Assembly: GCF_021729155.1 (NCBI RefSeq)
Contig: NZ_JAJQYA010000002.1
Location: 191,348 to 255,347, forward strand
Reading direction: 5' to 3'
Origin: Membranihabitans marinus
Lineage (GTDB): Bacteria > Bacteroidota > Bacteroidia > Chitinophagales > Saprospiraceae
DNA length: 64,000 nt
Positions 1,520 through 61,785 of this stretch are shown here, in pieces (within the stretch, counting starts at the first letter, position 1; every line of letters begins with the position of its first letter). The notes below the pieces were generated by a model. That model was given only the letters and a program-made list of their open reading frames with translations. It was not told where the DNA came from and ran no database searches. A program made the translations under genes and the position numbers.

Positions 1520-1554
1520 TCTATATTTTAAATTGATATTGTAATTCAAATAAT

Positions 1555-2724: not shown

Positions 2725-2727
2725 AAT

Positions 2728-3708: not shown

Positions 3709-4190
3709 TGATAACCTTAATAAACAAAACAGTAGAGCGATTACTGATAGGTATATTTATTATTATGACACTGAGCGTTACTTGGCAAGTGTTGAGTAGA
3801 TATATCTTCAACGTATCCGCCTCTTTTACAGAAGAATTGGCTCGATTTTGTTTGATGTGGTTGGCCATATTAGGCGCCGCATATATGACAGGTCAGCGGG
3901 GGCACATATCTATCGATTACTTGTTTAAAAAATTTTCACCGGATAATCAGCGTCGATTAGATTATTTCATAGAAATATTGATCATCGTATTTTCTGTAGC
4001 CGTATTGGTTATTGGAGGTGCGTATTTAATGTATATGACCTTTTATTTGAATCAAAAGTCTCCTGCCTTGCAGGTTCCTTTGGGGGCGGTGTATTCTGTA
4101 TTGCCCTTGAGTGGCGTATTGATTACATTCTATTCCCTAATTCACTTGAAGCAAATTAGTGTTAATAAATATCCTGAGCATGAATCCTGA
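3705..4190 (+). CDS. dctQ: TRAP transporter small permease (DctQ family)
   Basis: 161 aa with four predicted TM segments. Overlaps the dctP stop and precedes dctM. Confidence 0.75.
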   Translation: MMITLINKTVERLLIGIFIIMTLSVTWQVLSRYIFNVSASFTEELARFCLMWLAILGAAYMTGQRGHISIDYLFKKFSPDNQRRLDYFIEILIIVFSVAVLVIGGAYLMYMTFYLNQKSPALQVPLGAVYSVLPLSGVLITFYSLIHLKQISVNKYPEHES

Positions 4191-5484: not shown

Positions 5485-5494
5485 AAACTTTATT

Positions 5495-6871: not shown

Positions 6872-6922
6872 AGATAATTTAAATACTTACTTGTTGGCCC
6901 CAAGCCTATAAATTACTATACT

Positions 6923-8326: not shown

Positions 8327-8419
8327 TTTCTTAAATAATAGAAATTATTGAATTTAAATTAATACAATTAGCTTTATTTTCACAGAGGAATAGAAGCTTA
8401 AAAGATTAAATGATCTGCA

Positions 8420-9460
8420 GTGGAGAAAAAGAAAAACGGACAAGATTTTACCATCGTAGATATAGCCAATGAATTGAATATATCTGCGGCCACTGTATCT
8501 CGTGCTCTAAACGATCATAGTGATATCAGTGAGGCTACCAAGGAAAAGGTGCGTAAAATGGCTCAAAAAATGGGTTATCGACGCAACAAAATAGCCTCTG
8601 GATTGAGAAGTAAGAAGTCATATACCGTGGGTTTTATTATCCCGAGTTTGTCTTCATATTTTCAGACTGAATTGTTGACCGTTATTCAAAACAAAATGCA
8701 TGATTACGGGTACAATGTCATTATTTGTCAATCCAATGATTCCTTTGAGCTGGAACGTCAATTGGTGAATACATTGTATTCTTATCGAGTAGATGCTTTG
8801 TTTACTTCACTTTCACTTTATACAGAAGATTACAGTCATTTTCAACCCTTTATTGACAGGGGGATTCCTGTGGTATTCTATGATAGGGTTCCCAAAGTTG
8901 ATTTGCCGGCATATGTTATAATAGGTGATGATGTCAGAGGGGGATATTTGGCTGCCAATCACTTGATTGAGACCGGTTGCAAAACCTTGGCCTTTATCAA
9001 TGGCCCAACTTCCTGTAAGATTTATCACGATAGACTACAAGGATTTCAACAAGCGCTGAAAAATAACAATATCATCTACGATGAAAACTATGTTTTTTCC
9101 CATCCATTGAATAATAATTTGACTTGGGATGATTGTAGACATTTGTTTAACGACTTTGATATACCTCCAGATGGGATATTGGCTGCCAACGATACCACAG
9201 CCATTACCGTTCTTCAATATGCTAAAGAAAATCAAATTGATGTACCCAGTCAATTAAAAATTATTGGGTATTCCAATGATCCTCGTTCATCTATTGTTAC
9301 ACCTTCTATATCTACCATTGATCAGAGAATCCCCGAAATGGCTGATGCTGTTGTACAAGCATTTATTGAATTGGTTGTACAAGGTAAAAATGTAACTACG
9401 GAGGGAAGTTTGACCAAAAAAGTGGTTGATATCAGTTTGGTTCGCAGAATGTCGACATAG
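8420..9460 (+). CDS. LacI-family transcriptional regulator, probably the hexuronate locus regulator. GTG start.
   Basis: N-terminal HTH (TIVDIANELNISAATVSRALN) followed by a periplasmic-binding-protein-like sugar-binding domain. Confidence 0.85.
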   Translation: MEKKKNGQDFTIVDIANELNISAATVSRALNDHSDISEATKEKVRKMAQKMGYRRNKIASGLRSKKSYTVGFIIPSLSSYFQTELLTVIQNKMHDYGYNVIICQSNDSFELERQLVNTLYSYRVDALFTSLSLYTEDYSHFQPFIDRGIPVVFYDRVPKVDLPAYVIIGDDVRGGYLAANHLIETGCKTLAFINGPTSCKIYHDRLQGFQQALKNNNIIYDENYVFSHPLNNNLTWDDCRHLFNDFDIPPDGILAANDTTAITVLQYAKENQIDVPSQLKIIGYSNDPRSSIVTPSISTIDQRIPEMADAVVQAFIELVVQGKNVTTEGSLTKKVVDISLVRRMST

Positions 9461-9494
9461 ATTTCTTTTAAATACTTTTATTCTTCGCTGTAGT

Positions 9495-11162
9495 TTATTT
9501 GTCATTGGTGTATGAATTCCATATGGAAGTCAATTGGGCTATTTCAAATTCATGTATTTTGAGTTTTGATCCATGAGGGTTAAAATAGAATCCTTTTTTG
9601 CCATTAACTGGACTTTTTCTCGCATCTATTTTGGTGAATTTTCCATTTTGAGCAAATAATTCAACAGAAGTTCTATCGACAATAATCTCCAAATCCATGG
9701 TTCGCGATTGGATCTGGTCATCTTCAAAAAACACATCATTTAATGTGTTGTAATTCATTGAATAATTAGCGATGATCTGTCCATCCAATTCCAAAATGAA
9801 TCGATTTCCTTCGATGATTTCCACTTTCATTACAATATGAAAAGCATCGCCTTCTATTTTTGATAATTCAGTATTGAGATCATCTACTGATGGGTTTTTC
9901 CAACTGTAGTTATCGATATGAAGATTTTCAATTTCTCGAATAGGTTGATTAAATAATCGAATTCCGTTTACGGTATTTCGCAAAGTAAGTTGGGTAGGGA
10001 AGAGCATCATCTGGTTGAATGCCATATTTTCCGAATTGATTTTACCCCATCCAATTTGGATTCTTCTCCCATCTTCTTTAGGGATATTATTAAATGTCTG
10101 TGAAGCGAATTGTTTACCACTATAGTATTGATGTTTGCCCGATGTCATGGTAAATTTTTCGCCATCAAAATCACCGACCATATAGGTTCCTGATGCACCA
10201 TACATTACCCATTTTTTATGGTTGAGATCGCCATCCACAGGTAGTTCGAACAATTCAGGACATTCCCAGAATCCTTCGACGTGGCTTTTGTAGTCCCAAT
10301 CTTTTAAATCTTTTGACTGATAAATAGAAAAACCATCCTTTTCAAACAGAACCATGACCCATTTTTCAGAGGGATGGTGATAAAATATTTTTGGATCTCT
10401 GAGGTTTTTTGATTGCCAGCGGTCTTGGCTATCAATGACGGGATTACCTTCGTATTTGGTCCAAGTACGACCTCTATCATTACTGTATGCTATACATTGA
10501 ACCTGTTTATGTGATTGGTGAGCGGTGTATGCGGCAATCAAGGTTTTTTCATTTCCGGTTTGAAATCCACTGCTATTGTTTTCATCTACAGCAATCGTGC
10601 CCGAAAACATTGTTCCTAAATCATCTGGGTATAAGGCTTCTCCTAATTCTTCCCAATGGAGTAGATCTTTGCTGACTGCATGTCCCCAATGCATATTTTC
10701 CCAGTGGATCTCATAGGGATTGTGCTGGTAGAAAAGATGATACTCTCCATCGTAGTAGACCAATCCGTTGGGATCGTTGATCCATCCACGTCGAGTACTA
10801 AAATGGGCCTGAGGCCGAAGCCGTTCTCGATAGAGGTCCTCGGCATCTGCTATGTCCGCTGAATTGTAAATATTTTTTAACCCGTTGCGGGCTTCTGTAA
10901 AATCTAAGGTGAGGGTTTGGCCTATATAATCCGAAACATCGGTGTATACCCAATAGTCAACTATATCATCACTTAGGCGGATAACAAATTCCCGTTGAAA
11001 ACCATTGTTATCGCGAATAGTCATCTTGCCTCGTTCCTGGTCTTGGGCTACTGGGAGGTTTATATAGGGTTCTGTTATCTTAATAGTTATTGAGGCGTTT
11101 TGTCCAAATAAAATATTGAAAGAAAATAATAATATTCCAATAAGTCTCATTGTATTTATCAT
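9495..11162 (-). CDS. Glycoside hydrolase family 32 (beta-fructofuranosidase/levanase-like), secreted
   Basis: WINDPNGL...YHLFYQHNP catalytic-nucleophile motif, RDPK motif, C-terminal beta-sandwich, N-terminal signal peptide. Confidence 0.85.
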   Translation of the reverse strand: MINTMRLIGILLFSFNILFGQNASITIKITEPYINLPVAQDQERGKMTIRDNNGFQREFVIRLSDDIVDYWVYTDVSDYIGQTLTLDFTEARNGLKNIYNSADIADAEDLYRERLRPQAHFSTRRGWINDPNGLVYYDGEYHLFYQHNPYEIHWENMHWGHAVSKDLLHWEELGEALYPDDLGTMFSGTIAVDENNSSGFQTGNEKTLIAAYTAHQSHKQVQCIAYSNDRGRTWTKYEGNPVIDSQDRWQSKNLRDPKIFYHHPSEKWVMVLFEKDGFSIYQSKDLKDWDYKSHVEGFWECPELFELPVDGDLNHKKWVMYGASGTYMVGDFDGEKFTMTSGKHQYYSGKQFASQTFNNIPKEDGRRIQIGWGKINSENMAFNQMMLFPTQLTLRNTVNGIRLFNQPIREIENLHIDNYSWKNPSVDDLNTELSKIEGDAFHIVMKVEIIEGNRFILELDGQIIANYSMNYNTLNDVFFEDDQIQSRTMDLEIIVDRTSVELFAQNGKFTKIDARKSPVNGKKGFYFNPHGSKLKIHEFEIAQLTSIWNSYTNDK

Positions 11163-48773: not shown

Positions 48774-48929
48774 AATTTTGATATTGAATGTTAAATCGAA
48801 TTTAAGATTAAGTAATGTTTCAATCTAATGGAATAGATATCCTTAAATATATGAATAATTATTTATTTTTAAATAATATGCAGGTAATAAATTTGGCTTT
48901 GTTGATAAAAGGCGGAACGAATAATTGAA

Positions 48930-50285
48930 GGGGAGTGGCTAATTATTAATGGTTAATGGTTAATGGTCAATGGTCAATGATGTGACTGAGAATAGTTGTC
49001 CTTTGTGCAACTTCATTCGTTCAATCACGACAATTCCACTCCTTTGGAGGGGTGTCAGATTACTGACGGGGTGGTTTGGAAATTCTGTAGGAAATATTAA
49101 AAATTAATTTTTTTCAATCGAACCAAACCGTCAGTTTTCATAAATACTAGCCATGCCCACTGTGGTATGACGAGATTACATAAGATTCTCTGTTGATTTA
49201 CGGTCCAATCACGCCGGAGCTAGACTTCCTGTTGATATGTGGTGTAATCACGCCGGAGTGAGATTCTCTGTTGATTTACGGTGCAATCACGCCGGAGCAT
49301 GAACGAATGAAATTGAGGAGTGTTGGTTAATTATTAATGGACAATGGTTAATTGTTAATTGTCATTCACGACAATTCCCCTCCTATGGAGGCATGTCAGT
49401 TTTCATAAATTCTAGTCAAGTCCACTTTGGCATGACGAGATTACATAAGATTCGCTGACGATTTAAGGGCAATCACGACTCGGCACATTGGAATTTTCCT
49501 TACAATTTTCGGTGCAATCACGCCGGAGCGAGATTTCACTGTTGATTTGTGGTGCAATCACGCCGGAGCGAGATTCTCTGTTGGTTTACGGTGCAATCAC
49601 GCCGGAGGTAGATTTCCTTACAATTTTCGGTGCAATCACGCCGGAGCGCAGTGGAATTTTCCTTACAATTTTCGGTGCAATCACGCCGGAGCGAGATTCT
49701 CTGTTGATTTACGGTCCAATCACGCCGGAGCTAGACTTCCTGTTGATACGTGGTGTAATCACGCCGGAGTGAGATTCTCTGTTGATTTACGGTGCAATCA
49801 CGCCGGAGCATGAACGAATGAAATTGAGGAGTGTTGGTTAATTATTAATGGACAATGGTTAATTGTTAATTGTCATTCACGACAATTCCCCTCCTATGGA
49901 GGCATGTCAGTTTTCATAAATTCTAGTCAAGTCCACTTTGGCATGACGAGATTACATAAGATTCGCTGACGATTTAAGGGCAATCACGACTCGGCACATT
50001 GGAATTTTCCTTACAATTTTCGGTACAATCACGCCGGAGCGAGATTCTCTGTTGGTTTACGGTGCAATCACGCCGGAGCTAGATTTCCTTACAATTTACG
50101 GTGCAATCACGCCGGAGGTAGATTTGCTTTCAATTTTCGGTGCAATCACGCCGGAGGTAGATTTGCTTTCAATTTTCGGTGCAATCACGCCGGAGCGCAG
50201 TGGCTCCGGTTCCCTCATCAAAGGTCGATTTACGACCTTTGGTTGCCCTAAAAGGCAACTTCATTCGGTCATCCACCAGACTTTT
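48930..50285. repeat. Higher-order tandem repeat block. About 16 copies of the 19-bp direct repeat GGTGCAATCACGCCGGAGC, spaced by 20-26 bp degenerate spacers and arranged in three sub-arrays. These are separated by about 190-bp modules that recur three times (period about 510 bp). Flanked by ATGGTTAAT heptads and ending in the family's terminal multi-hairpin element.
   Basis: Direct reading of the sequence. Sub-arrays lie at about 49203-49300, 49510-49808 and 50023-50200. The 190-bp modules lie at about 49060-49200, 49306-49495 and 49808-50005. The terminal element CCGGAGCGCAGTGGCTCCGG / CAAAGGTCG..CGACCTTTG / GGTTGCC..GGCAAC / TTCATTCGGTCAT spans 50186-50280. Confidence 0.85.
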
Positions 50286-51721
50286 GTGTTGATGTTGTCA
50301 GGGCCCATACGCTGAATCGCAGCTTGATAATTCGCCTGATTGACGGCTTGCTCAGATTCAGGATATAAATATCTCGCTGGATACCGACCTCCATTGAGAT
50401 TGTCAGGACCAGGTTTTAAATGCGGAATCCCAGTTCGACGTACATTAAACCATGCTTCGTGACCATTGCTGATTAAACTCAACCATTTCTGTGTCAGTAT
50501 TTTGTCTAAATGTTGCTCTCCATTTAATGCTATATTCTCCCTCGTAAAATAATCTTCTGGGATATCTGCTCCTAAATATTCAAAATGTGCCGTAATCCCA
50601 TTTACATAATACTCCTCTACATCCCCATCGATTAATCCACGTTCCACCGCTTCGGCTAAGGCAAATTGAAGCTCTGAATACAACATTATTTGACCGTCTA
50701 CACCATCGGCTACATCCCTGTATATAGATCCAAATAACGATATGTCGTTTAAATCAATTTGATTGGCCGCTATAGTCTCTCTGTTTTGACCATTGAGTAA
50801 TCCCTTGTATTGGGGATTCTTCGCACTGATGCTGGCCGCCGTTGGTTTGTATAAAATAGCCATTCGCGGATCATCCCATGAATGTAAAATCGAATCCACC
50901 GTTCGTGTCATCCGATGCTCTTGATATATACCCAGTCCAGCTTGGGACAACGGAAACTGATTCGGAGCCGCTCCGAGATAGGGAACAACGGCATTGTCCC
51001 CATTGCCACGCATAAGTGGAGCCGAATTAGCTAGATCCTCCAAAACACTGAAGTCGTCTATTTTATTGGAAATACGCAAGTAATATCTGACCTGCAATGC
51101 ATTGGCCAATCGAATCCATTGATCTAAATCATTGCCATACATCACATCACCTTGTATACGCGCCGTAGTTGAAGATAGGGTGCTGGCCGCCCGATTTAAA
51201 ATAGCCAATAACCCATTTTCATCATCTAAATATATATCTTCCTGCCTGTCGTATTGGGGTGTGGTGATACCTACACCTACCTTCAAGGCCTCAGTATAAG
51301 GTACATCACCCCATAAATCGGTAAGCTGTGAATAAATATAAGACTTTAAAATATCCCCAACCGCTTCATAGGCCTCATTGCTGGCTTCTACCGTCTGCAT
51401 GGATTCAATATCGGCCAATAAGTGGTAAAGTAAATTCCAATAAGTGGCATTACTTCCCAATTCGTATCGATCGATGCGCTCAAACTCTACACTTGCTGAA
51501 AATTGGGCTAAATAACTCGCTAACCTAAATCCTTGATTATAGGTGTTTTCATCCGCTAATACTGATATTACATTGGATAATAAAAACTGTGGATCGATGG
51601 ACTCCGACGCATTGGGATTTTGATTGATGCTTTCAAAATCACGACTGCAAGAAATTCCAATTCCAAAAAATATAATGAGAAATACAATATGGTTTTTCAT
51701 GGTATTAACTTTAAAATTCAC
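50261..51721 (-). CDS. SusD/RagB-family outer-membrane lipoprotein
   Basis: Lipobox (GISCSRD), TPR-like helical content, 486 aa. Lies immediately downstream of, and overlaps, a SusC-like gene. Confidence 0.85.
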   Translation of the reverse strand: MNFKVNTMKNHIVFLIIFFGIGISCSRDFESINQNPNASESIDPQFLLSNVISVLADENTYNQGFRLASYLAQFSASVEFERIDRYELGSNATYWNLLYHLLADIESMQTVEASNEAYEAVGDILKSYIYSQLTDLWGDVPYTEALKVGVGITTPQYDRQEDIYLDDENGLLAILNRAASTLSSTTARIQGDVMYGNDLDQWIRLANALQVRYYLRISNKIDDFSVLEDLANSAPLMRGNGDNAVVPYLGAAPNQFPLSQAGLGIYQEHRMTRTVDSILHSWDDPRMAILYKPTAASISAKNPQYKGLLNGQNRETIAANQIDLNDISLFGSIYRDVADGVDGQIMLYSELQFALAEAVERGLIDGDVEEYYVNGITAHFEYLGADIPEDYFTRENIALNGEQHLDKILTQKWLSLISNGHEAWFNVRRTGIPHLKPGPDNLNGGRYPARYLYPESEQAVNQANYQAAIQRMGPDNINTKVWWMTE

Positions 51722-54700
51722 TCTTTAAACTAATTCCAAAACTTCGAGTAGAAGGATAAGACATGTCCTCTACACCATAGGTGAAATTGCGCTCTTGTAC
51801 AGCATTGAGCTCAGGATCAAAATGTGGATTTTCTGTCCATAGCCATAAATTACTGCCCAAAAATCCCAATTTTAAACTTTGGAATCCAATGGCGGCACAG
51901 ATCTCTTCAGAAAAGCTATAATAAATTCCTATTTGCCGTAATTTTATATAACTGGCATCATAGAGAGCCGAAGCTTCATTGCCTCGATCATAGTAATTAT
52001 TGTAATATGTACTCGCCGGAACTACAGTAGTGTTTTCAACGTATTGGGGATTTTCATCACTGCCTATATTCACTACGCCATCGCCAATAATACCATTTTC
52101 ACGCCCCACTAGGGTTTCCGCCAAAACACCAGCGGTACTGCCTAGGGCCTTGGTTCGCGATACGATAGTCCCTCCCTGACGCCAATCGAATAATAGATTA
52201 AATGAAAAATTCTTATAAATCACTTCATTGCCCAGTCCCAAAGCGAAATCGGGATTGTAATTGCCCAATAACCGCAGTTGACCATCCTGAACCGGCAAAC
52301 CATTACTACCGTATAGCGTGCGGCCATCGACTTCTACAAATCCTGTACCGTACATGTCGCCAACACGTCCTCCTTCCTTGGCTATATAGAATACCTCGTT
52401 GGATCCGCCATCACCTCCGAAGATCTTGGCAGATCCAGTGACAAATTGATCGACTCCATTGGGCAATTCAGAAACCACACTCTCATATGTGGAAAAATTG
52501 ATATAGGCATTCCATTGAATATCATTGTTGCGTATCAAGCCACCACCAATTCGAGCTTCAAGTCCTTTGGTCACAACAATACCCCCATTTTCAATAATAT
52601 TGCCAAATCCCGTCGATTGGGAAATGGGACGACCGATGATTTGATTGATACTGGTATTTTCATAAATGGAAATTTCGGTTTGAATCCGATTGCCAAACAT
52701 CCACAATTCCATCCCTGCTTCCAAGGCGTTGAGTCGCTCTGGTTTTAACTCTGCATTCTTGAGGATGGTCTCATTGGTTACTCTAAAATTTGATCCGTAA
52801 TTTTGATTAAATAAAAAAGTATTGTTCAGTTGATAGGGATCGGTATCATTTCCTGCACTTGACATATTTACCCTTAATTTGAGGAAAGAAATATCCTCAG
52901 GAAGTTCAAAGGTATTGGATACTATAAAACTCAATCCCATCGAATAATAGGCAAAGGAATTGTCATCTATAGGTAAGGTACTGCTCCAATCGTTGCGCAA
53001 TGACATGTCCAAATACAATGAGGATAAATAACTCAAATTGATTAAACCGTAAAGACTATTGATTCTTTTGGTGAAATATTGACTATTTCCAACCAAGGGA
53101 TTTCTCGAGTTGGCCAGTGAGTAAATACCGGGGATGGAAAGTTGCGAAGCTTCGGCAAATTGATAATCGATTTTTTGGTCAAATCTATTGCCCCCAGCGG
53201 AAATCGAATAATTGATTTTATCTGCTATATTATTGGCATAGGTAAGGAGTAGGTCGGCATTGGTCTCTCGGTATTGTATCTGATCTTCTCGATAACTGCC
53301 GAATGGATTTCGGTTTGTACTGACTGCCCTTTGGAAATATCTATTGTCATGATAAATATCCAATCCATATCTAGTTCTCAAACTCAAATGTTCGGTAATG
53401 TCATAGTTGAGACTACCATTGCCCAATACTCTATTTTTATTGAAACTATTGGTGTTTTCAAATAACGTAAGGTAGGGATTGGTGAGCCATAGATAATTGA
53501 TGTCATAATGTTCTAGTCCTTCATATCCGGCTTGCCAGTAATTTGCCATTGAGGCGATATTGGTCTGCCTCCCCGTCCAATTGAATCCGTAAATTACATT
53601 TTCATAACCATAGCCCAGATTCGGTCTGTTGTTGCTTCTACTATTGACAAAACTGACATAACTGTCAAATTGAAGTTTGAGATGTAACTGTTGGTGAATA
53701 CCTATAGATATACCATCTCTTTTGAGGTCGGTATTAGGCAAAATCCCATTGTTGCGCAAGTTGTGGTAGGCGGCTCTAATTGATCCATTATCACCTTGAG
53801 ATTGAAAAGAAATATGATTTTGATTGGTGACTCCGGTTTCAAAAAAATCTCTAATATTATCTGGTCTCGATATCCATGGTGTCGGTGTCACAGGAGTATA
53901 ACTACCGTCGGCTAGTTGTCGAGAGAGAATATCGCCTGCCCGTACTACTTGGCCATTGATATCGGTCGATGGGCTGTCGAATTGGGGAATCATCAAACCA
54001 GCATCCAACTTGGGACCAAAACTCGATAATCCCCCATCGCTGATACCGGCTCCACTTCCATTGACAAAGGCGTATTGGCCGCCAGAACCTCCACCGTATT
54101 CATTTTGATAATCGGGCAAGGTCAATAGGGTTTCAAAGGTCAGTGAACTGGATAGGGTTATACCCATACCTTTTTTCTCACCTCCTCGTTTAGTATTAAT
54201 AACAACCACACCGTTGGCTGCTCTGGATCCATAAAGGGCAGCAGATCCCGCTCCTTTTAACACCGAGATGGATTCGATATCTTCTGGACTGATTTCCGCA
54301 GCCCCATTGCCAAAGTCAACTTCTTGTAGGGCGCCGTCATTGCTCAAGTCGCTGGTGATTAGTTGGTTGCTGATGGGGATGCCATCGACTACAAAGAGGG
54401 CTTGGTTGTCACCACTCAGTGAATTTTCACCCCGAATAATGATGCGTGACGAAGATCCTACTCCAGATGAGCCATTGGTTACCTGTAGTCCTGCTACCTG
54501 TCCTGCCAAACTATTGACCATATTGGTCATGGGCACTTGGGTAAATGCTTCTGCGCCCAGTTTTTCAACCGATGAGGAGAGGGCTTGTCTTTCCCGCTTG
54601 ATGCCAATGGCAGTCACTACAATTTCGTCAATTTGGCCGTAAGCTGTTTCCATCATTAAGCGGTCGGGAAACAATCCATTTTCGATAGTGAGTAGGACCT

Positions 54701-54956
54701 TGTTGTACCCTACATAGGAGACAATGATTTGAAAATCTTGTAAATCTGTAGTCAAGGTAAATTGTCCTACATCATCGGTGATGGCGTAGATAGATTGATC
54801 GACGATCTGGACCGAAGCCCCAATCAAGGGCTGGCCTTGATTGTCGACTACGGTAGATCGATAGTTAATAGTTTGTGAAAACAATGTACCTGCTGTCAAT
54901 GTGAGCAAGAATAATATATACGTTTTCATAAAAACTGATTTTAAAGTTATCGTCAT
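51711..54956 (-). CDS. SusC/RagA-family TonB-dependent outer-membrane transporter
   Basis: Signal peptide, a carboxypeptidase-regulatory-like N-domain, TonB box DEIVVTA, plug and a 22-strand barrel, with a terminal ...F. 1081 aa. True start may be MKTYILF at 54929. Confidence 0.9.
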   Translation of the reverse strand: MTITLKSVFMKTYILFLLTLTAGTLFSQTINYRSTVVDNQGQPLIGASVQIVDQSIYAITDDVGQFTLTTDLQDFQIIVSYVGYNKVLLTIENGLFPDRLMMETAYGQIDEIVVTAIGIKRERQALSSSVEKLGAEAFTQVPMTNMVNSLAGQVAGLQVTNGSSGVGSSSRIIIRGENSLSGDNQALFVVDGIPISNQLITSDLSNDGALQEVDFGNGAAEISPEDIESISVLKGAGSAALYGSRAANGVVVINTKRGGEKKGMGITLSSSLTFETLLTLPDYQNEYGGGSGGQYAFVNGSGAGISDGGLSSFGPKLDAGLMIPQFDSPSTDINGQVVRAGDILSRQLADGSYTPVTPTPWISRPDNIRDFFETGVTNQNHISFQSQGDNGSIRAAYHNLRNNGILPNTDLKRDGISIGIHQQLHLKLQFDSYVSFVNSRSNNRPNLGYGYENVIYGFNWTGRQTNIASMANYWQAGYEGLEHYDINYLWLTNPYLTLFENTNSFNKNRVLGNGSLNYDITEHLSLRTRYGLDIYHDNRYFQRAVSTNRNPFGSYREDQIQYRETNADLLLTYANNIADKINYSISAGGNRFDQKIDYQFAEASQLSIPGIYSLANSRNPLVGNSQYFTKRINSLYGLINLSYLSSLYLDMSLRNDWSSTLPIDDNSFAYYSMGLSFIVSNTFELPEDISFLKLRVNMSSAGNDTDPYQLNNTFLFNQNYGSNFRVTNETILKNAELKPERLNALEAGMELWMFGNRIQTEISIYENTSINQIIGRPISQSTGFGNIIENGGIVVTKGLEARIGGGLIRNNDIQWNAYINFSTYESVVSELPNGVDQFVTGSAKIFGGDGGSNEVFYIAKEGGRVGDMYGTGFVEVDGRTLYGSNGLPVQDGQLRLLGNYNPDFALGLGNEVIYKNFSFNLLFDWRQGGTIVSRTKALGSTAGVLAETLVGRENGIIGDGVVNIGSDENPQYVENTTVVPASTYYNNYYDRGNEASALYDASYIKLRQIGIYYSFSEEICAAIGFQSLKLGFLGSNLWLWTENPHFDPELNAVQERNFTYGVEDMSYPSTRSFGISLKSEF

Positions 54957-55948
54957 TTTAAATTGATGTATTGATAAGCTTGTTTCAACAACTGGGTTTT
55001 GCGGTTGAGATCAAGATTTAGGGGTAATTGAGCCAAACCCAATAGCCGTCTCATAACCTCTACTCCAGCACAAGCCAGACAGAGATCGACGTCGAGGGGA
55101 GCTTCGGTTTGATAGAGCTTAATTGCTGCATCGATGGTCGCTTGGTTTTGATCGGCCATCATTAAGTGGGCCAATAATACCCCAACTTCGAATTCGGGAA
55201 ATCCAAAAAAACAAAACTCAGGATCTATTATGTAAATACCACTATTGGTCTTTAGCCAGCTACCGGGAAAATAGTCTCCATGGAGTAGCGTGTCGCCATC
55301 GGCCAAATACCGCTGACCCAATTCTTCAATTTTGCTTTTAAGAGCGGTATCGGTTTTGTAATTCATCGCTACTTCCGCCAAACCAGGAGTGATGTTGTCC
55401 AAATCCAATCCATTGTCCATAATAAATGGATAATGAAAAATATGCTCGTGATTTAGTTTCCTCATTTCTCTATTGTGGATAACAAGTGGAGAATGATCAA
55501 CCTTAAATTGTTGATGAAGCCTGGCAATAAATGATACAATGGCTGTGAGATCTATTTTGTCGATTTTAGTCCCAGCCTTGTACAAGTGAGTAAAATCACT
55601 GGCAGCACCTAGATCTTCCAATAATAGAACATTGTTTTCAACGTCGGATTCTAGGATGCTTGGTGTTTGGGAGCTGAGTACTTCATCGGTTTGAACGAGT
55701 TGGTAAAAAGTCGCTTCTGATTGAATTCGATCTTCTGGAGCTGGAACTTGGGGATATTTTTCAACATAAGGTCGGCTCTGTTTAATGATAAATGTTCGGA
55801 TAGAAGTGACTACGCGAGCGGTGAAATTCATATTTCCTTCGCCGGGTACTTCTACCACATCTACGGTTTCACCATCTTGTAACCAAGATTGTGATTGTAA
55901 GTAATTTTGAATTTCAGAATTGTTGATGGTTAAGTGAGTGTAAATCAT
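54953..55948 (-). CDS. APH-fold kinase resembling the 5-methylthioribose kinase (MtnK) family
   Basis: GEGNMNFTARV, FIIKQSRPYVEKYP and LLHGDYFPGSWL....IIDPEFCFFGFPEFEVG align with MtnK blocks GDGNLNYVF, IIKQAVPYAKV and LIHGDLHTGS...VIDPEFAFYGPIGFDVG. The MtnK blocks are recalled from memory. 331 aa, shorter than the canonical 397. Confidence 0.55.
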   Translation of the reverse strand: MIYTHLTINNSEIQNYLQSQSWLQDGETVDVVEVPGEGNMNFTARVVTSIRTFIIKQSRPYVEKYPQVPAPEDRIQSEATFYQLVQTDEVLSSQTPSILESDVENNVLLLEDLGAASDFTHLYKAGTKIDKIDLTAIVSFIARLHQQFKVDHSPLVIHNREMRKLNHEHIFHYPFIMDNGLDLDNITPGLAEVAMNYKTDTALKSKIEELGQRYLADGDTLLHGDYFPGSWLKTNSGIYIIDPEFCFFGFPEFEVGVLLAHLMMADQNQATIDAAIKLYQTEAPLDVDLCLACAGVEVMRRLLGLAQLPLNLDLNRKTQLLKQAYQYINLK

Positions 55949-55977
55949 TTGATTCTGTTTTTTGGGTTTGAAAAAAT

Positions 55978-56901
55978 TTATAATAATGTTTGCATTAAGT
56001 TTCTATGATATTCTGGTACGACATCGTAGCAATATTTTACCCCATATCCAGGTTGATGATCACAGAGTAAATAATTTTTAAAGCTTTCTTTATCATTATC
56101 TACGATGGTATCGTCTATATGGATTTCGAGTCTGGCGTTTAAATTTTCCGAAATAATATCTTCTGGAGCAATGATGTAATGGCTGGCTAATACATCGAAA
56201 GGATTGAATCCTTCAGCTCCCTGATCGATCCACTGTGCCAACCAATTTCTAGAGTGCTTTTCCAAATATTGACAGCCCGCATCTCCAGTCTTCAATAAAT
56301 CCAAATCTCGAGCGGTAATCCAAACCTTATTCGATATTTCAAATGGACAAAGGGTAATGGAAACTCCCGCTTGAAACATGATTTGAAATGCCTGATTGTC
56401 GAGATCAAAGTTGAGGTCTCGAGCTCTATTTCCGCGATTGCCTATGCTGAAATAGTCGGTAGGTGATCTTCTGCCGGCTACCAAAACTACTTCTTGTATT
56501 TGATCCTTGAGCTCGGGATATTGAAGTAATAAGACTCCTATATTGGTCGCTGGACCAATGGCCATTATTGTCATTGGGCCTCGTTTAAGCTCTTCAGCTA
56601 GGGCGTCGACAGCCTCATTGTGTTCTATTTTTGCCAAGTCTATAGCTTGGCCATATCCTTTGAATACCGGGATGGAATAAGTGGCAAATTTTTCACTCAT
56701 TTCCACAGATAAAGCATAGGCGTTGTCTATAAGAGTATTGCCAAATACGGCACTAATGCCAGCAATATGGACGCTAGAAGAACGCATCAATTGCCACACC
56801 GCATATCCATCGTCGACATCGCAATAGCCACTGCGATGATGCCTTTTCATGCCGACGGATAAATCGGTGTCGATCCAGATTTTCTTTTTATTTGTAGTCA
56901 T
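55978..56901 (-). CDS. Nucleoside hydrolase (IU-NH family)
   Basis: N-terminal aspartate cluster WIDTDLSVG...DVDDGYA, compared with the DTDPGxDD consensus. 307 aa. Confidence 0.7.
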   Translation of the reverse strand: MTTNKKKIWIDTDLSVGMKRHHRSGYCDVDDGYAVWQLMRSSSVHIAGISAVFGNTLIDNAYALSVEMSEKFATYSIPVFKGYGQAIDLAKIEHNEAVDALAEELKRGPMTIMAIGPATNIGVLLLQYPELKDQIQEVVLVAGRRSPTDYFSIGNRGNRARDLNFDLDNQAFQIMFQAGVSITLCPFEISNKVWITARDLDLLKTGDAGCQYLEKHSRNWLAQWIDQGAEGFNPFDVLASHYIIAPEDIISENLNARLEIHIDDTIVDNDKESFKNYLLCDHQPGYGVKYCYDVVPEYHRNLMQTLL

Positions 56902-56936
56902 AGATTTGTATTTTATTATTTTGCTCTTACCGTTAT

Positions 56937-57689
56937 TTATGATGAAATAAAATTGGATGAAAGATCGCTTGCTATCCCATTCCAGAATTCGACTTCTGCT
57001 AGCACTCCTGTCGATTTGTCCTTCATAAAGTCAGATTTTTCCTTGTACACCTTGAGGTATCCAGCATCCATATAGGCTATTTCATCTCCCATTAATAAGG
57101 CTTCTTTGAGGTCGTGGGTCACAAATAGCGAGGTAATGTGAAATTGCTGGGCCAAAGATTTAAACAATGACTGCATGTTTTGCCTAGTCATGCTATCCAA
57201 ACTCCCAAAAGGTTCGTCTAACAGTAGGAGGGAAGGATTGGTGATGATGGCTCGACCAAAAGATACGCGTTGGCGTTGCCCGCCTGATAACTGTTGCGGC
57301 ATTTTGTGCTTATGGCCGGACAACTCTAAACTGTTGATCATAGATTCCACTTGGTCTTGAATTTCATCTTTGGATTTCTTCTGTATCCGAAGGCCGAAAG
57401 CGATGTTTTCAAAGACGGTGAGATGTGGAAACAGCAAGTCTTCTTGATATAGATATACGATATTCCTCTTTGCTGCTGGTTGTTCGGTAATGGTTTTATT
57501 GTTTAGACGAATAGTTCCAGAATCTGGTTTGATTAGACCTGCGATAATCTTTAGCATTGTCGTTTTGCCACAACCGGATTTACCCAAAATGCTTAAAGTT
57601 CGATTGTTCTCTAAGGTGAGTTGAAGATTCTTGACGATGGAATCGCTGCCAAATGCTTTGTTTATATTTTCAATGTGTAAGAAACTCAT
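56937..57689 (-). CDS. ABC transporter ATP-binding protein (importer type)
   Basis: Walker A GKSGCGKTT, LSGGQRQRV signature, Walker B LLLDEPFGSLD. Confidence 0.85.
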   Translation of the reverse strand: MSFLHIENINKAFGSDSIVKNLQLTLENNRTLSILGKSGCGKTTMLKIIAGLIKPDSGTIRLNNKTITEQPAAKRNIVYLYQEDLLFPHLTVFENIAFGLRIQKKSKDEIQDQVESMINSLELSGHKHKMPQQLSGGQRQRVSFGRAIITNPSLLLLDEPFGSLDSMTRQNMQSLFKSLAQQFHITSLFVTHDLKEALLMGDEIAYMDAGYLKVYKEKSDFMKDKSTGVLAEVEFWNGIASDLSSNFISS

Positions 57690-58456
57690 ATCAATTTGTT
57701 GAATACATATTTTTTATTGAAATAGATTAACAGGGCTGGTGGTAGAATAAGTAGACAACAGCTCATGGCACCGTAGTAAAAATTGGCTTCTTTAATAAAT
57801 AGAAACACCTTTATGGTCAATGTTTCCACCTTGCCTACACCGATAATGGAAGTTAAACCATATTCAAACCATGAGATTAAAAAGGTTTGAAAAAAGCAAA
57901 TCATCATTAGTGGACCGGCCATGGGGATTAATACTTTGGTATAAGTCGTCCAAGGATTGCCGCCCAGAGTAGCCACAAGGTTTTCGTATTCACGGGTTTG
58001 CTCTCCCCAATAACTGCTGAAAAATATTAGGGCGTAGGGAAAAGCTATAATAAATTGAGACAGAATGACTCCTGCAGTATTTCCAAATAAGCCTACTTTA
58101 ATGAAGTAAAAACTCAAGCAGGCTCCAAAGACCACTGGTGCTAATACATAGGGAAAGTAGGTGATCAATGTCCACAGTCGTTTTTTGGGATGATAATTGA
58201 CATATCGACTAATAAAAAAACCAGTAAGGGTAGCGGAAGTGGCTACCGAAAGAGAAATCACTAGAGAGAGGACAAAACTAGACAGCAATCCAGTTTCACC
58301 GCTGATGACTCGAGACCAGTTTCTGAGACCAAAATATTGAGGCCAAAGTTCTGGAAATCGCCAATCTGCAGAAAATGACAATATCAATAGATATATAAAG
58401 GGGAAAGCAATCAAAGCGATATAGATTCCCAAAGCTATATTTTTTACTTTAACCAT
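57686..58456 (-). CDS. ABC transporter permease
   Basis: Six TM helices and an EAA-like loop. Overlaps neighbours in an operon. Confidence 0.8.
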   Translation of the reverse strand: MVKVKNIALGIYIALIAFPFIYLLILSFSADWRFPELWPQYFGLRNWSRVISGETGLLSSFVLSLVISLSVATSATLTGFFISRYVNYHPKKRLWTLITYFPYVLAPVVFGACLSFYFIKVGLFGNTAGVILSQFIIAFPYALIFFSSYWGEQTREYENLVATLGGNPWTTYTKVLIPMAGPLMMICFFQTFLISWFEYGLTSIIGVGKVETLTIKVFLFIKEANFYYGAMSCCLLILPPALLIYFNKKYVFNKLI

Positions 58457-59327
58457 CTATTCGTATTGATTTTCGTCTTAAAAAAAGAAAAAGAGTCATG
58501 ATGGTTACCAGTACGGTATAAATTACGGCTACTACATAACCTTCTGATATTTTGGTTAAATCAAATTGTTTGAGTTCCCTGACTATGAGGACGGATAACA
58601 TTTGAGGGGATTCTTGACCTAGAATTAGCGGAATTTCATAAGCTCCTAAGAGAAATATATAATACAAGGCTATCAATGGCCAGGTTTTATGCAGTAGCAA
58701 TGGGATAGTGATACGACGTATGATTTGATTCGGACGACTTCCCAGTGAAGCGGCTAAAGATTCTAATTCTGCAATGCGTTCCGTTTTAAAAACCCCGATG
58801 AACAAGAGTAGAAAAAAGGGCATCACTACGCTGACAAAGGTAAGTATGATGCCGAAGCCAAAATCGTCGTTGATGAGGTCGGGAAATTCTTGGATATCTT
58901 TAATCCACCCTATTTGGTAGAACCATCTTGAAAAGTAACCTGATTTACTCAATATCTGAACGGCAAAAAAGGCAGATACAACACCGGGCAATGCCAGCGG
59001 TAAGTAGAGTAAAAATGATATCGTCTTATGTTGAATCTTTTTGTGAAACAGCAGGGTCAACCATAGGGCAATACCCACGGAAAATACCATGGCTATCAAT
59101 GCCATAAAGGCACTAAATCCAAAAGATTTAATAAATTCTCCCGATTCTAGGATTTCTTGCCAGTGCTCTATGGTGAATCCGCTATTGGCCACACCTACCA
59201 GTCCCAAACTATACAATAGGGCATAGATAAAGGATAGCGCAAAGGGGATGATGCCCAAAACTGCGAAAAACAATAAGCCTATATTTTGATATTTAGTTCT
59301 CAATGATATATTTTCTAAAGTCTTCAT
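58449..59327 (-). CDS. ABC transporter permease
   Basis: Six TM helices and an EAA-like loop (ELESLAASLGSRPNQIIRRITIP). Confidence 0.8.
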   Translation of the reverse strand: MKTLENISLRTKYQNIGLLFFAVLGIIPFALSFIYALLYSLGLVGVANSGFTIEHWQEILESGEFIKSFGFSAFMALIAMVFSVGIALWLTLLFHKKIQHKTISFLLYLPLALPGVVSAFFAVQILSKSGYFSRWFYQIGWIKDIQEFPDLINDDFGFGIILTFVSVVMPFFLLLFIGVFKTERIAELESLAASLGSRPNQIIRRITIPLLLHKTWPLIALYYIFLLGAYEIPLILGQESPQMLSVLIVRELKQFDLTKISEGYVVAVIYTVLVTIMTLFLFLRRKSIRIDG

Positions 59328-60510
59328 ACAATCTAATCATATACCTAGGGTCGGGTTCTTGGATAGCATATTCTTTCATATCATTCATCGAAATACCGTA
59401 TTCACGTCGGGTTATATTTTGAAATTTGGTTTTCCACTCATCTGGCAGTTGGTCGATATCCAATACGGTATTGGCATCCATGCCTTTGGGATCGGCTTTT
59501 TGTAATTGTGCTTCTGGCGACAACATATAATTTATAGCCACCAATGCCGCTTCTTTATTGGGAGCATTGTAGGCTATACCGAGATAATTGGTGTTTTTAA
59601 TAGTTCCGTTGGCCCAAGGATATGCTCTAGTAGTGTTGGGAAAAAGTCCCTGATGGATTTTATCATCGATAGCACCTTCGCCAAATCCAAAACCCAAATA
59701 GATTTCTCCATTGGCAAACATTTGGTCCATCTTGGTTTGCTCTTTGGGAAAAGTACTGCCTGCTTTCCATAAGTATGGTCGTATTTCTTCAATAAAGTCC
59801 CATAACTTTCCCGACCATTCTAGGTAATTATCTTCATTAAAAGGACCGTTTAGACCTTGGGAAGATCCACTTATTTCAGCTAAAAAAGACTTCAATAAAG
59901 TCATTCCAGAGAAATCATTGGATATGGTGAATGTTCCCGGATATTCTTGAACATAGGTTTTCAATTCGTCGAGGTTGGTGGGCGGATTGCTTATTTTGGC
60001 TGAATCGTATACCATAGCAAATTGGCTGATGGTCCAAGGACATTCCATATAATTGACTGGTTGTTGGAAGTCTATGCTGATAAATGGATCTTCGAAGTCT
60101 ACATATTGTGCATTGGGAAGACTTTCGACAAATGGGCCCCATAGTCCTTGTATTTGTCGAAGTTGAAAGAAGGTTTCACCGTTAATCCATACCATGTCTA
60201 CCTGTCCAGACTCCACATTGGCTTGTTTTTCGCCCATCATCAATTGCACAATCTCTGGCCCTTGACCTCCAATGACATTTAATTCAATATCGTAGTTGGC
60301 TTTCAATCGCGGTTTGACAAATTCCAAGATGTAATGATTGATCTCTGGAGAACCTTGCCACATCATAAAGTGGAGATCGGAACCTTTGGCTTGTTCCACT
60401 ATAGCCGACCATTCGGTGTTGGATAGATCTAAACTTGGTTTTTCCTGTGATGACTGACAAGCAGACCAAAGGCTGAAAACCAGTAATATATACCAGATAT
60501 TTTTCTTCAT
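59293..60510 (-). CDS. ABC transporter periplasmic substrate-binding lipoprotein
   Basis: Lipobox LWSACQSS. About 400-aa SBP fold. First gene of the minus-strand operon. Confidence 0.75.
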   Translation of the reverse strand: MKKNIWYILLVFSLWSACQSSQEKPSLDLSNTEWSAIVEQAKGSDLHFMMWQGSPEINHYILEFVKPRLKANYDIELNVIGGQGPEIVQLMMGEKQANVESGQVDMVWINGETFFQLRQIQGLWGPFVESLPNAQYVDFEDPFISIDFQQPVNYMECPWTISQFAMVYDSAKISNPPTNLDELKTYVQEYPGTFTISNDFSGMTLLKSFLAEISGSSQGLNGPFNEDNYLEWSGKLWDFIEEIRPYLWKAGSTFPKEQTKMDQMFANGEIYLGFGFGEGAIDDKIHQGLFPNTTRAYPWANGTIKNTNYLGIAYNAPNKEAALVAINYMLSPEAQLQKADPKGMDANTVLDIDQLPDEWKTKFQNITRREYGISMNDMKEYAIQEPDPRYMIRLYEDFRKYIIEN

Positions 60511-60621: not shown

Positions 60622-61329
60622 TCAAACTAGTGAGTTCTGTGGTGGTGCTCTGAGAGAATTGTCCTTTAACCAATAGAATAAGGTCGGAGGAAAGGATTGA
60701 ATGAATAGAGGGCAGTGTGTAACGGCTAATAATCTTAATAGATTGATTTTGAGCCTAACACTGATGGTTGAGCCATGGGTGATTGTCCATAGATCTTGAC
60801 CATTGTTGATATCTCTTAGTCTTGGAAGTTCAAAGTATTGTTGAGTATTTTCGTGTATATACTCATTGAGGGCTGTATACAATTGATTGGTCTGCCAAGG
60901 TAGGATCTGAAAATCTATATAGTTAAAAGCGGTTTTAGTTAAACCGATTAAATAAGCACCGTCTCTCAAAGAAGGTCCAAGGACAGATCGACCTGCACTG
61001 ATGTTTTGAATGATATTTTCCCAGTCAAGACGATTCAATTCTAAGCAATCGTTACCCACGGTAATAATGGCTTCATAGCCTTGATCGAATATTTTTTGAT
61101 GGGCATTGGCCAATCGTTCACCAAAATTTTGACCGATTTGCTGTCTTTCATCATAGTGATGAATGGAAAGACCTGTTTGTTTCAGTATTGATTTGTTGTA
61201 GGTATTAAACAGGCGTGCTATAGAAAGATTACTTTTCCTAGAGCCCTTTTTTAACCATGTCTTCCGTTGAATTTCACATTCAGCAGATAAGCTAAAAAAC
61301 AAAATCGCTATGTTTTCTCGACAAATCAT
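60622..61329 (-). CDS. DUF2064-like nucleotidyltransferase-fold protein (hypothetical)
   Basis: IAILFFSLSAE..KTWL N-terminus and an AIITVGNDCLEL block resembling DUF2064/TIGR04282 motifs. From memory, uncertain. Confidence 0.35.
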   Translation of the reverse strand: MICRENIAILFFSLSAECEIQRKTWLKKGSRKSNLSIARLFNTYNKSILKQTGLSIHHYDERQQIGQNFGERLANAHQKIFDQGYEAIITVGNDCLELNRLDWENIIQNISAGRSVLGPSLRDGAYLIGLTKTAFNYIDFQILPWQTNQLYTALNEYIHENTQQYFELPRLRDINNGQDLWTITHGSTISVRLKINLLRLLAVTHCPLFIQSFPPTLFYWLKDNSLRAPPQNSLV

Positions 61330-61785
61330 TAAATCAAAGGTAGAATAAAAAATATTAATTTAACACGGTTTGTTTTTATTAAAACTTTTTTGTGTTTGTT
61401 GTTATTTTTATTTTAAATACGAATGTCTTGGGTGATTAAGTATTGAAGTGGATACTTGTTGTGCAATATTTTAGCTAAATAATTAACATATAACGGTATT
61501 TGTACTTAAGAAATGATCGAATCTGTCCTAAAGAAAGATTAGGTCTTGAAGTAGATAATAGATCTTTATTGGTTGTTTTACATAGTTAATATAGGGGATA
61601 ATTTATGGCACTAGAGAGTTGATATAATCACAAGGCACTAGTTATATTTTGGTCTTCTGAATTAATCTAAATGTGTTTAAAGAAGTTATGGTATTTATCC
61701 TTGATATGACTTAAATTGGGAACTGAACATTAAACTAGAGAATAATGGTAGCTAATATCGTGTGAATTGATATTTTTGTGCCATC

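Follow-up and report, generated by a model that had tools for sequence, protein, structure and literature searches.

Systems of the SusC/SusD type (SusCD) have been studied almost wholly as glycan importers. In the rus polysaccharide utilization locus (PUL) of Bacteroides thetaiotaomicron, variants of which are widespread in Bacteroidota, SusC/SusD are joined by a nucleoside hydrolase and a sugar kinase and serve a non-polysaccharide source of ribose; the rus kinases are of the ribokinase family and phosphorylate the 5-position, and the locus also encodes the RusT permease, a RusR or LacI regulator and often glycoside hydrolases (GHs). We analysed a 64,000-nucleotide stretch of the Membranihabitans marinus genome (hereafter the window; RefSeq assembly GCF_021729155.1, contig NZ_JAJQYA010000002.1, positions 191,348 to 255,347 of the forward strand; coordinates given without a locus number are those of the window), in which a minus-strand cluster likewise combines SusC/SusD with a nucleoside hydrolase (NH) and a kinase. 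We class the cluster as a PUL-like TonB-dependent small-molecule salvage operon. We consider it probable, though well short of certain, that it salvages a small exogenous ribofuranoside, either a nucleoside or a nucleoside-like compound, a reading that describes a general mechanism and names no ligand. Its relatives in more than 300 species, mostly marine, would thus form a conserved SusCD system built around a small riboside.

The cluster differs from rus in carrying an MtnK-like kinase predicted to act at C1, an ABC importer dependent on a solute-binding protein (SBP) that is optional among its relatives, and a paralogue of DUF2064 proteins, and in having neither a regulator nor a GH. Membership in the rus family was rejected, since no ribokinase, RusT-type permease or RusR/LacI regulator is encoded and the kinase has the aminoglycoside phosphotransferase (APH)/MtnK fold; a preliminary description of this DNA had rightly set the cluster apart from the ribokinases and permease of rus, and the text of the rus survey makes no mention of ABC importers or MtnK-like kinases. 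Nucleoside cleavage followed by anomeric phosphorylation, with a kinase of the MtnK fold and its G-loop, HGD, IDXEF and RR elements, is shared with MtnN/MtnK and with DrdK/DrdI/DrdA of the dihydroxyacetone phosphate (DHAP) shunt. Here, however, the hydrolase is an inosine-uridine (IU)-type NH and not of the methylthioadenosine nucleosidase (MTAN) fold, there is no isomerase or aldolase, and cleavage is coupled to uptake through the outer membrane. The importer has its counterpart in Escherichia coli YnjBCD, which shares the SBP family (PRK11622) and the type I class of permeases and ATPase; there, however, the permease is fused, and NH, kinase and TonB-dependent transporter are all lacking. 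In E. coli K-12 (NC_000913.3, 1833000–1845000), ynjB lies within ydjXYZ-ynjABCDEF together with genes for an AhpD-like protein (YnjA), a rhodanese (YnjE) and a CDP-alcohol phosphatidyltransferase (YnjF), and these rhodanese and redox genes echo those found beside clusters of other Bacteroidota. Our literature search found no description of the cluster, of its DUF2064 protein or of the YnjB ligand, and the cluster would give the first functional context for a YnjB-type ABC importer and for a DUF2064 paralogue.

The preliminary description had reported eight packed, co-oriented genes on the minus strand, and this layout was borne out: the eight open reading frames (ORFs) were confirmed in place, the start of susD excepted, their junctions overlap by 4, 4, 8 and 35 nt or leave gaps of 10, 29 and 35 nt, and profile searches backed every domain call. 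In order of transcription, they encode a lipoprotein SBP of the YnjB/PRK11622 type (59293–60510; 405 amino acids (aa); NF008633, 365 bits against a cutoff of 203; PF13416 and PF01547), ABC permease A (58449–59327; 292 aa; PF00528 (BPD_transp_1); CysT/PhnU-like), ABC permease B (57686–58456; 256 aa; PF00528 (BPD_transp_1); ModB/PhnV/PotC-like), a PotA/PhnT-like ABC ATPase (56937–57689; 250 aa; PF00005 (ABC_tran), 131 bits), the IU-type ribohydrolase, predicted to be cytoplasmic (55978–56901; 307 aa), the MtnK-like, predicted anomeric (C1) sugar kinase (54953–55948; 331 aa), a SusC-type TonB-dependent transporter (51711–54956; 1081 aa; TIGR04056, 552 bits against a cutoff of 368; TIGR04057 signature) and a SusD-like lipoprotein (50261–51700; 479 aa; PF12771, 274 bits). 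The kinase stop overlaps the SusC start by 4 nt, and SusC and SusD are spaced by 10 nt. For SusD the domain assignment stood and the start at 51721 did not, as it belonged to a GTG-extended ORF; the real start is an internal Met at 51700, which gives the lipoprotein signal MKNHIVFLIIFFGIGISC (GISC lipobox) and the 479 aa also called in the public record. A ninth co-oriented gene (60622–61329; 235 aa), encoding the DUF2064 paralogue (PF09837, 50.5 bits; GT-A/nucleotide-diphospho-sugar-transferase-like), lies 111 nt upstream of the SBP gene and is preceded by an AT-rich divergent intergenic region of 456 nt (61330–61785), which we presume to hold the promoter.

SusC carries Plug and CarboxypepD_reg domains and has no STN signalling domain. 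The adjacent susC/susD pair is that of a PUL; the preliminary description had noted the absence of carbohydrate-active enzymes (CAZymes) and regulators, and profile searches likewise found none in or beside the cluster within the window, whether CAZyme, hybrid two-component system, SusR or extracytoplasmic function (ECF) sigma/anti-sigma factor. Because neither CAZyme nor regulator accompanies the pair in the window, we call the cluster PUL-like only; a TetR gene adjoins it in 10 other loci. A search for conserved operators upstream of the first gene (46 loci) returned only AT-rich k-mers. Rfam searches of the whole window, seven diverse loci and, at permissive settings, the region downstream of SusD found no relevant family or riboswitch, the only matches being a Flavo-1 motif and a tRNA, both in Pedobacter.

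Relatives of the kinase were found in 312 species genomes (one genome scanned per species), and we examined the best 80 of the loci from these genomes. All 80 belong to Bacteroidota, with hosts in Saprospiraceae, many Flavobacteriaceae, Schleiferiaceae/Owenweeksia, Cryomorphaceae, Marivirga, Cyclobacteriaceae, Pedobacter, Leadbetterella and Lacihabitans that are mostly, but not all, marine. The ORFs of each locus were scored against the window proteins, and 53 loci had full 10-kb flanks. SusC, SusD, NH and kinase occurred together in 49 of these 53, the DUF2064 paralogue in 42, a complete ABC importer in 35, and a radical SAM gene directly after the kinase in 19. The DUF2064 gene, kept with the cluster at this frequency, is counted in the same unit, which makes a nine-gene operon. 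The arrangement recurs with permuted gene order in Saprospiria, Flavobacteriia, Cytophagia and Sphingobacteriia, the lineage-dependent orders being DUF2064-SBP-permease-permease-ATPase-NH-kinase-(radical SAM)-SusC-SusD, DUF2064-SusC-SusD-SBP-permease-permease-ATPase-NH-kinase-(radical SAM) and DUF2064-SusC-SusD-NH-kinase, with the gene in parentheses present in some loci. In some Psychroflexus loci (L034, L056 and L062; L numbers are our handles for single loci, and a further Psychroflexus locus, L051, is cut at a contig end) SusCD gives way to a single TonB-dependent transporter (~1000 aa) that has no SusD partner, and the same replacement occurs in non-marine Pedobacter, Leadbetterella and Lacihabitans, beside DUF2064, kinase and NH. 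Since the type of transporter swaps while the trio stays, what is invariant is that DUF2064 paralogue, hydrolase and kinase are partnered by a TonB-dependent importer of the outer membrane. The neighbourhood comparison across Bacteroidota that the preliminary description had called for thus shows the cluster to be kept, and the functional tie that it had drawn between SusCD and the hydrolase and kinase is supported by the count of 49 loci, by the several gene orders and by the alternative transporter of some lineages.

The order of steps is strongly indicated by the ABC importer and the location of the hydrolase, which co-vary. With its SBP, two BPD_transp_1 permeases and ATPase encoded together, the importer is a type I SBP-dependent system; the lipobox Cys18 of the SBP is invariant in relatives, and the ATPase matches only residues 1–230 of models of ~350 positions, leaving no C-terminal regulatory domain. 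An AlphaFold2 (AF2) model of the SBP (predicted local distance difference test (pLDDT) 86) had the cluster-D proteins PhnS/STM0429, PotD, AfuA, P5PA and FbpA as its Foldseek neighbours, a fold class that binds small charged or polar ligands. In loci that contain the ABC importer (type A), the NH had no signal peptide (38/38) and started directly at the conserved KKxVWIDTD. In loci with no ABC importer (type B), it carried a signal or lipoprotein extension (21/22; median length 61 aa) consisting of a hydrophobic signal and a low-complexity linker, with a lipobox in at least 10 (Fisher p = 2.8e-15 for ABC presence versus signal-less NH). The two states are interspersed on the kinase tree, where parsimony requires a minimum of 7 switches, and the same rule repeats in the separate, divergent type-C NH lineage, in which Leadbetterella and Lacihabitans have a signal peptide and no ABC importer and Pedobacter has an ABC importer and no signal. 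A single ancient split behind the co-variation was rejected on both grounds, the seven or more switches and the repetition of the rule.

Because ABC presence and the signal-less NH co-vary, the ligand of the importer would be the substrate of the hydrolase. Most simply, the SBP/ABC system would deliver the hydrolase substrate intact to the cytoplasm and would be dispensable when the hydrolase works outside it. SusC scored alike in type A and type B loci, and this similarity indicates that SusCD handles the same small molecule in both. The two arrangements, importer with cytoplasmic NH or no importer with exported NH, are in effect a natural experiment that orders the steps from sequence, and they strongly back the succession of capture, ABC import, ribosidic cleavage and sugar phosphorylation put forward in the preliminary description. 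What had been presented there as a complete route with the ABC importer at its core needs revision on two points: the importer, although present in the window, is an optional module (35/53 loci), and the conserved DUF2064 paralogue had been missed.

The kinase has its best NCBIfam match in MtnK (TIGR01767), at 120.3 bits and so below the equivalog cutoff of 275, with residues 9–270 aligned to positions 5–277 of the 401 in the profile; it also matches PF01636. At 331 aa it is 66 aa shorter than B. subtilis MtnK (397 aa), close to the ~65 aa given earlier. Structure prediction, which had been proposed as a check, gave an MtnK-like fold (AF2 pLDDT 92.4); Foldseek ranks 1–15 in the PDB were all MtnK (TM-score 0.69–0.82), followed by PsiK, the choline kinase LicA, APH and homoserine kinase (HSK). 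Profile and fold together agree with the earlier assignment of an MtnK-like protein and not of a choline, aminoglycoside or homoserine kinase. In MtnK, the G-loop reads GXGNXN, the Asp of HGD binds O1/O2, IDXEF serves Mg and the ribose face, RR binds O2/O3, and a cap over the 5-methylthio group is formed by W74/L180/L345 in B. subtilis and W76/V184/V370 in Arabidopsis thaliana (At) (PMC2194712). We mapped these residues by two independent pairwise alignments. The window kinase keeps G36-E-G-N-M-N41, H223-G-D225, I241-D-P-E-F245 and R300-R301, all invariant in 81/81 sequences, and it is very probably an anomeric kinase for free ribofuranose. The cap residues W74/L180/L345 are replaced by V68/H169/L305, so that two of the three are changed and there is no W-loop Trp; H169 and N166 are invariant in 81/81 sequences, and position 68 holds V, I or L. 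The space around the 5-substituent is thus predicted to have widened (Trp to Val) and to have become polar (Leu to His), which disfavours 5-methylthioribose and 5-deoxyribose. No MtnA/DrdI isomerase, MtnB or aldolase was found in ~80 neighbourhoods, and the absence of an isomerase or aldolase beside the kinase likewise disfavours MTA (5'-methylthioadenosine) as well as 5'-deoxyadenosine; on the cap residues and the missing genes, these two substrates, which the preliminary description had suggested, are unlikely. The kinase would define a new sister family of MtnK.

The hydrolase scored 107 bits against PF01156, above the gathering threshold of 34, as the domain check suggested earlier had anticipated. 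Its family profile was aligned to the structures of RihA, YeiK and plant NRH. Residues D11, D13, D30, D31, T119 (in IGPATN), D162, N164, F235 and D236 are invariant, and the equivalents of the Ca2+ and ribose ligands D10, D14, D15, T126, N168 and D242 are present. The contiguous DXDXXXDD fingerprint and the leaving-group His/Trp are absent: the fingerprint is split by a 12-residue basic insertion (DTD-LSVGMKRHHRSGYCDV-DD), and Phe235 precedes Asp236 at the place where group I enzymes have a leaving-group His and purine-specific/group II enzymes a Trp. In addition, an invariant Asp162 takes the place of the Glu166 equivalent next to the 5'-OH, a change beside the 5' position that parallels the altered 5-pocket of the kinase. 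The enzyme is probably active, and it probably forms a distinct, atypical subgroup of IU-NHs.

By its profile score (71.6 bits against TIGR04282, cutoff 134) and motifs, the DUF2064 protein is a paralogue of TIGR04282 and not a member: it has no PxxGKxKTRL nucleotide-binding motif of true TIGR04282 proteins, and its C-terminal extension ends in R(A/G)PP. It matches a putative nucleotide-diphospho-sugar transferase in the PDB (3cgx, E 1e-9), and its orthologues match CofC. In AmgK/MurU salvage, an APH-fold anomeric kinase and a nucleotidyltransferase together produce an NDP-sugar. The present cluster similarly pairs a kinase predicted to make a sugar-1-phosphate with a GT-A-like protein, and AmgK/MurU may serve as a model for the pair, although here the families are MtnK-like and DUF2064 and the DUF2064 paralogue has no canonical nucleotide-binding motif. 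By analogy with such salvage pairs, a DUF2064 step on the sugar-1-phosphate is a reasonable guess.

The salvage mechanism that we propose would run as follows in the window and in other type A loci. SusCD would move the intact compound across the outer membrane, and the lipoprotein SBP, together with the two permeases and the ATPase of the ABC importer, would bring it to the cytoplasm, where the Ca2+-dependent IU-family hydrolase would cut the ribosidic bond and the MtnK-like kinase would phosphorylate the anomeric C1-OH of the freed ribofuranose. The DUF2064 paralogue (GT-A fold) may then use the sugar-1-phosphate in a nucleotidyl or glycosyl transfer, and its product could feed an adjacent family 2 glycosyltransferase (GT2; TIGR04283) in some lineages. 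In type B relatives the hydrolase would be exported and cleavage would take place outside the cytoplasm. Under this mechanism the sugar, beyond the aglycone alone, would be the part that the cell keeps, and its 5-position most likely bears a group that exceeds methylthio in both bulk and polarity. What the analysis establishes are the identities of the genes, their conservation, the coupling of importer and hydrolase, the kept catalytic set of a ribose 1-kinase and the altered pocket residues; the direction of flux, the DUF2064 step and the nature of the 5-substituent are what these findings suggest. Several points weigh against ribofuranoside salvage as outlined here. PDB sequence searches and the AF2/Foldseek comparison gave no winner among the PotD, PhnS, AfuA and FbpA types for the ligand class of the SBP, and neither a riboswitch nor an operator names the ligand. 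Type B clusters encode no inner-membrane transporter for the released sugar, and the catalytic role of the DUF2064 paralogue is uncertain because the canonical nucleotide-binding motif is lost. The spacing of the nine genes is what points to their co-transcription, the picture of the kinase pocket derives from alignment to MtnK, and the roles given here to the 5'-OH-binding Glu, the leaving-group His and the Ca2+ ligands of the NH follow the IU-NH literature.

Genes that adjoin the cluster in other lineages bear on the identity of the ligand. In Psychroflexus, the run is NH-kinase-rhodanese-TIGR04282-(TIGR04283)-DUF547-purine nucleoside phosphorylase, with a standard purine nucleoside phosphorylase 5–30 nt after the cluster in five loci. 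Christiangramia and Salegentibacter have kinase-FAD disulfide reductase-TIGR04283 with overlapping junctions, and in Owenweeksia a reductase, DUF547, TIGR04283, TIGR04282 and a rhodanese are encoded just upstream of the cluster; such genes also abut it in Flagellimonas/Muricauda and Leadbetterella. Accessory genes of the TIGR04282/TIGR04283 type were adjacent in ~12/53 loci and are absent from the window. In NCBIfam, TIGR04282 and TIGR04283 bear the name 'arsenosugar biosynthesis' glycosyltransferase, and NF045521 is listed as 'rhodanese near glyco'. The window and about two thirds of loci lack the radical SAM gene, which occurs only in clusters with an ABC importer (23/43 type A versus 0/21 type B, p = 1e-5); the probable target of its product is the compound in intact form or else the aglycone.

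Which riboside is taken up can be narrowed by weighing these neighbours against the pockets of the two enzymes. The ligand could be a 5-deoxy-5-dimethylarsinoyl-riboside, either an algal arsenosugar or 5'-deoxy-5'-dimethylarsinoyl-adenosine, a candidate that we regard as unlikely but worth setting out. On that route the NH would free arsenoribose, the kinase would make its 1-phosphate, and DUF2064/TIGR04282 and the TIGR04283 GT2 would re-attach it to an acceptor. The pathway of ArsM and ArsS has this need, in that ArsS makes an adenosine derivative and the later nucleosidase and glycosidation enzymes are unassigned (PMC13598754, PMC10456119); NH and kinase would be the postulated 'nucleosidase' and the step that activates the 5-substituted ribose. 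True TIGR04282, TIGR04283, NF045521, DUF547 and FAD disulfide reductase genes abut the cluster in several lineages, some with overlapping junctions, the core DUF2064 gene is paralogous to TIGR04282, the kinase pocket (W to V, L to invariant His) would fit a bulkier, hydrogen-bond-accepting dimethylarsinoyl group, and most hosts are marine, where arsenoribosides are most abundant (PMC10456119). Yet neither the window nor any of ~80 flanks of 10 kb contains ArsS (TIGR04167/DUF3641), ArsM or a further ars gene, the radical SAM protein of the cluster is not ArsS-like, the cluster encodes uptake and not de novo synthesis, and the accessory genes, confined to the loci counted above, owe their TIGR0428x names to genomic association with ArsS and not to assays. 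Arsenosugars are also O-ribosides, and cleavage of unactivated O-ribosides by IU-NHs is not established. A pair resembling EgtB and EgtD near the Flagellimonas reductase points equally to thiol or selenol chemistry, and in a broader form the idea may extend to salvage of a 5-heteroatom ribose (As, Se or S) tied to rhodanese/disulfide-reductase chemistry. If an arsenoriboside or another 5-heteroatom riboside were the ligand, those steps of arsenosugar metabolism that lack an assigned enzyme would be filled by the cluster, which, in the case of an arsenoriboside, would also show how marine heterotrophs process a major pool of organoarsenic. Ordinary ribonucleosides, used much as by rus, with ribose converted to ribose-1-phosphate for a phosphopentomutase or nucleoside phosphorylase, strike us as rather unlikely. 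The canonical ribose-binding set of the NH, a kinase-pocket His and Asn that could bind a 5-OH, the Psychroflexus purine nucleoside phosphorylase and the precedent of SusCD-linked nucleoside hydrolases in rus all speak for them, but the W-to-V change enlarges the 5-pocket where a smaller one would be expected, the Glu-to-Asp change of the NH next to the 5'-OH is invariant, and a ribose 1-kinase is not a known route, ribokinases being ubiquitous and the defining kinases of rus systems. Ordinary nucleosides would further leave the DUF2064 paralogue, the radical SAM enzyme and the rhodanese, GT2 and reductase neighbours unexplained, and the combination of a TonB-dependent transporter with a high-affinity SBP suggests a scarce ligand; were they nonetheless the substrate, the route via ribose-1-phosphate would still be a distinct one. 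The proposal of the preliminary description, in which MTA or 5'-deoxyadenosine is scavenged and the kinase acts on 5-methylthioribose or 5-deoxyribose as in methionine salvage or the DHAP shunt, now appears quite doubtful. It draws on MtnK being the closest family and fold of the kinase and on the shared logic of a nucleosidase followed by a C1 kinase, as in MtnN/MtnK (PMC6302742). Set against this are the kinase score far below the equivalog cutoff, the replacement of two of three methylthio-cap residues, one by an invariant His, the lack of MtnA/DrdI, MtnB or aldolase genes in the neighbourhoods, a hydrolase of the IU-NH and not the MTAN type, and a DUF2064 gene for which this pathway offers no role.

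A different emphasis would place the value of the ligand in its aglycone, a rare base or cofactor moiety of the queuosine type that the radical SAM enzyme would process in some species while the kinase recycled the ribose. A TonB-dependent transporter combined with an SBP-dependent ABC importer is the classic architecture for trace cofactors, in the queuosine salvage of Clostridioides difficile an IU-family hydrolase is joined by a radical SAM lyase, and the radical SAM gene is confined to loci in which the compound would enter the cytoplasm intact. We nonetheless think aglycone salvage improbable: type B clusters would free the base outside the cytoplasm and encode no base transporter, yet always keep the kinase and DUF2064, the radical SAM gene is missing from the window and most loci, and no riboswitch for a known cofactor was found by Rfam in the window and seven loci. 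The weight that these four readings leave goes to some other modified riboside. Lastly, SusCD might stand beside an independent operon of ABC importer, NH and kinase by chance, which is very improbable given their co-occurrence in several gene orders, the 4-nt overlap of kinase and SusC, and the other TonB-dependent transporter at the same position in some lineages; a scan for promoters and terminators, with counts no higher than the shuffled expectation, was uninformative and gave no evidence either way.

The radical SAM family (~320–340 aa; L005, 11071–12090, and 25 other loci, following the kinase) has CX3CX2C at C19/C23/C26 and further invariant C42, C199, C229, C230, C291 and C294, six additional Cys that suggest auxiliary Fe-S clusters; NCBIfam, Pfam and PDB profile searches assigned it to no specific family, ArsS and QueE included. 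A CxxC protein of 120–145 aa (YPCSLCATTYG; L054, 17559–17951, and 12 other loci) is absent from the window and matches nothing in Pfam or NCBIfam; in 11 loci its reading frame overlaps the SusD stop, by 15–18 nt in several. In Flagellimonas sp. C4 (L067, 15958–19516), the FAD disulfide reductase gene is followed by an EgtB-like (DinB_2 + FGE-sulfatase) and then an EgtD-like (Methyltransf_33) gene, a pair of the ergothioneine or selenoneine type. The Flavo-1 RNA motif (RF01705, 61.8 bits) lies between kinase and hydrolase in Pedobacter segetis (L081, 10967–11054). Lipid-active hydrolases recur beside the cluster in different lineages, with a patatin in 9 loci as well as alpha/beta hydrolases and a GDSL lipase (for example L088, 11167–11994; L067, 11455–12222; L033, 13162–14058; L005, 17195–17950); in addition, a cyclopropane-fatty-acid synthase is present in Pedobacter and a fatty-acid hydroxylase in Owenweeksia. 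Such neighbours may point to a product or substrate linked to lipid, or be coincidental.

M. marinus itself appears to carry both cluster types. Strain DP5N28-2 has a second, paralogous cluster (L079) with no ABC importer, an exported hydrolase and a kinase 51% identical to that of the window; the 100% copy of the window kinase was not among the retrieved genome loci, and either one genome has both clusters or two assemblies differ. Directly downstream of the SusD stop lies ~1.3 kb of non-coding repetitive DNA (48900–50200), with a perfect 300-nt duplicate (49183–49482 = 49694–49993; period 511 nt), a 184-nt repeat family in seven copies, TTAATGG-type micro-repeats and four copies of a small hairpin, CGGAGCGAGATTCTCTG; the region has no Rfam match. 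Elsewhere in the window, and unrelated to the operon, a hexuronate utilisation cluster (710–11162) encodes a short-chain dehydrogenase/reductase (SDR), UxuA, the tripartite ATP-independent periplasmic (TRAP) transporter components DctP/DctM, UxaC, a LacI regulator and a protein with two 3-keto-disaccharide-hydrolase domains, and is adjoined by a GH32 gene; the window also holds genes for a resistance-nodulation-division (RND) efflux pump and a sulfatase.

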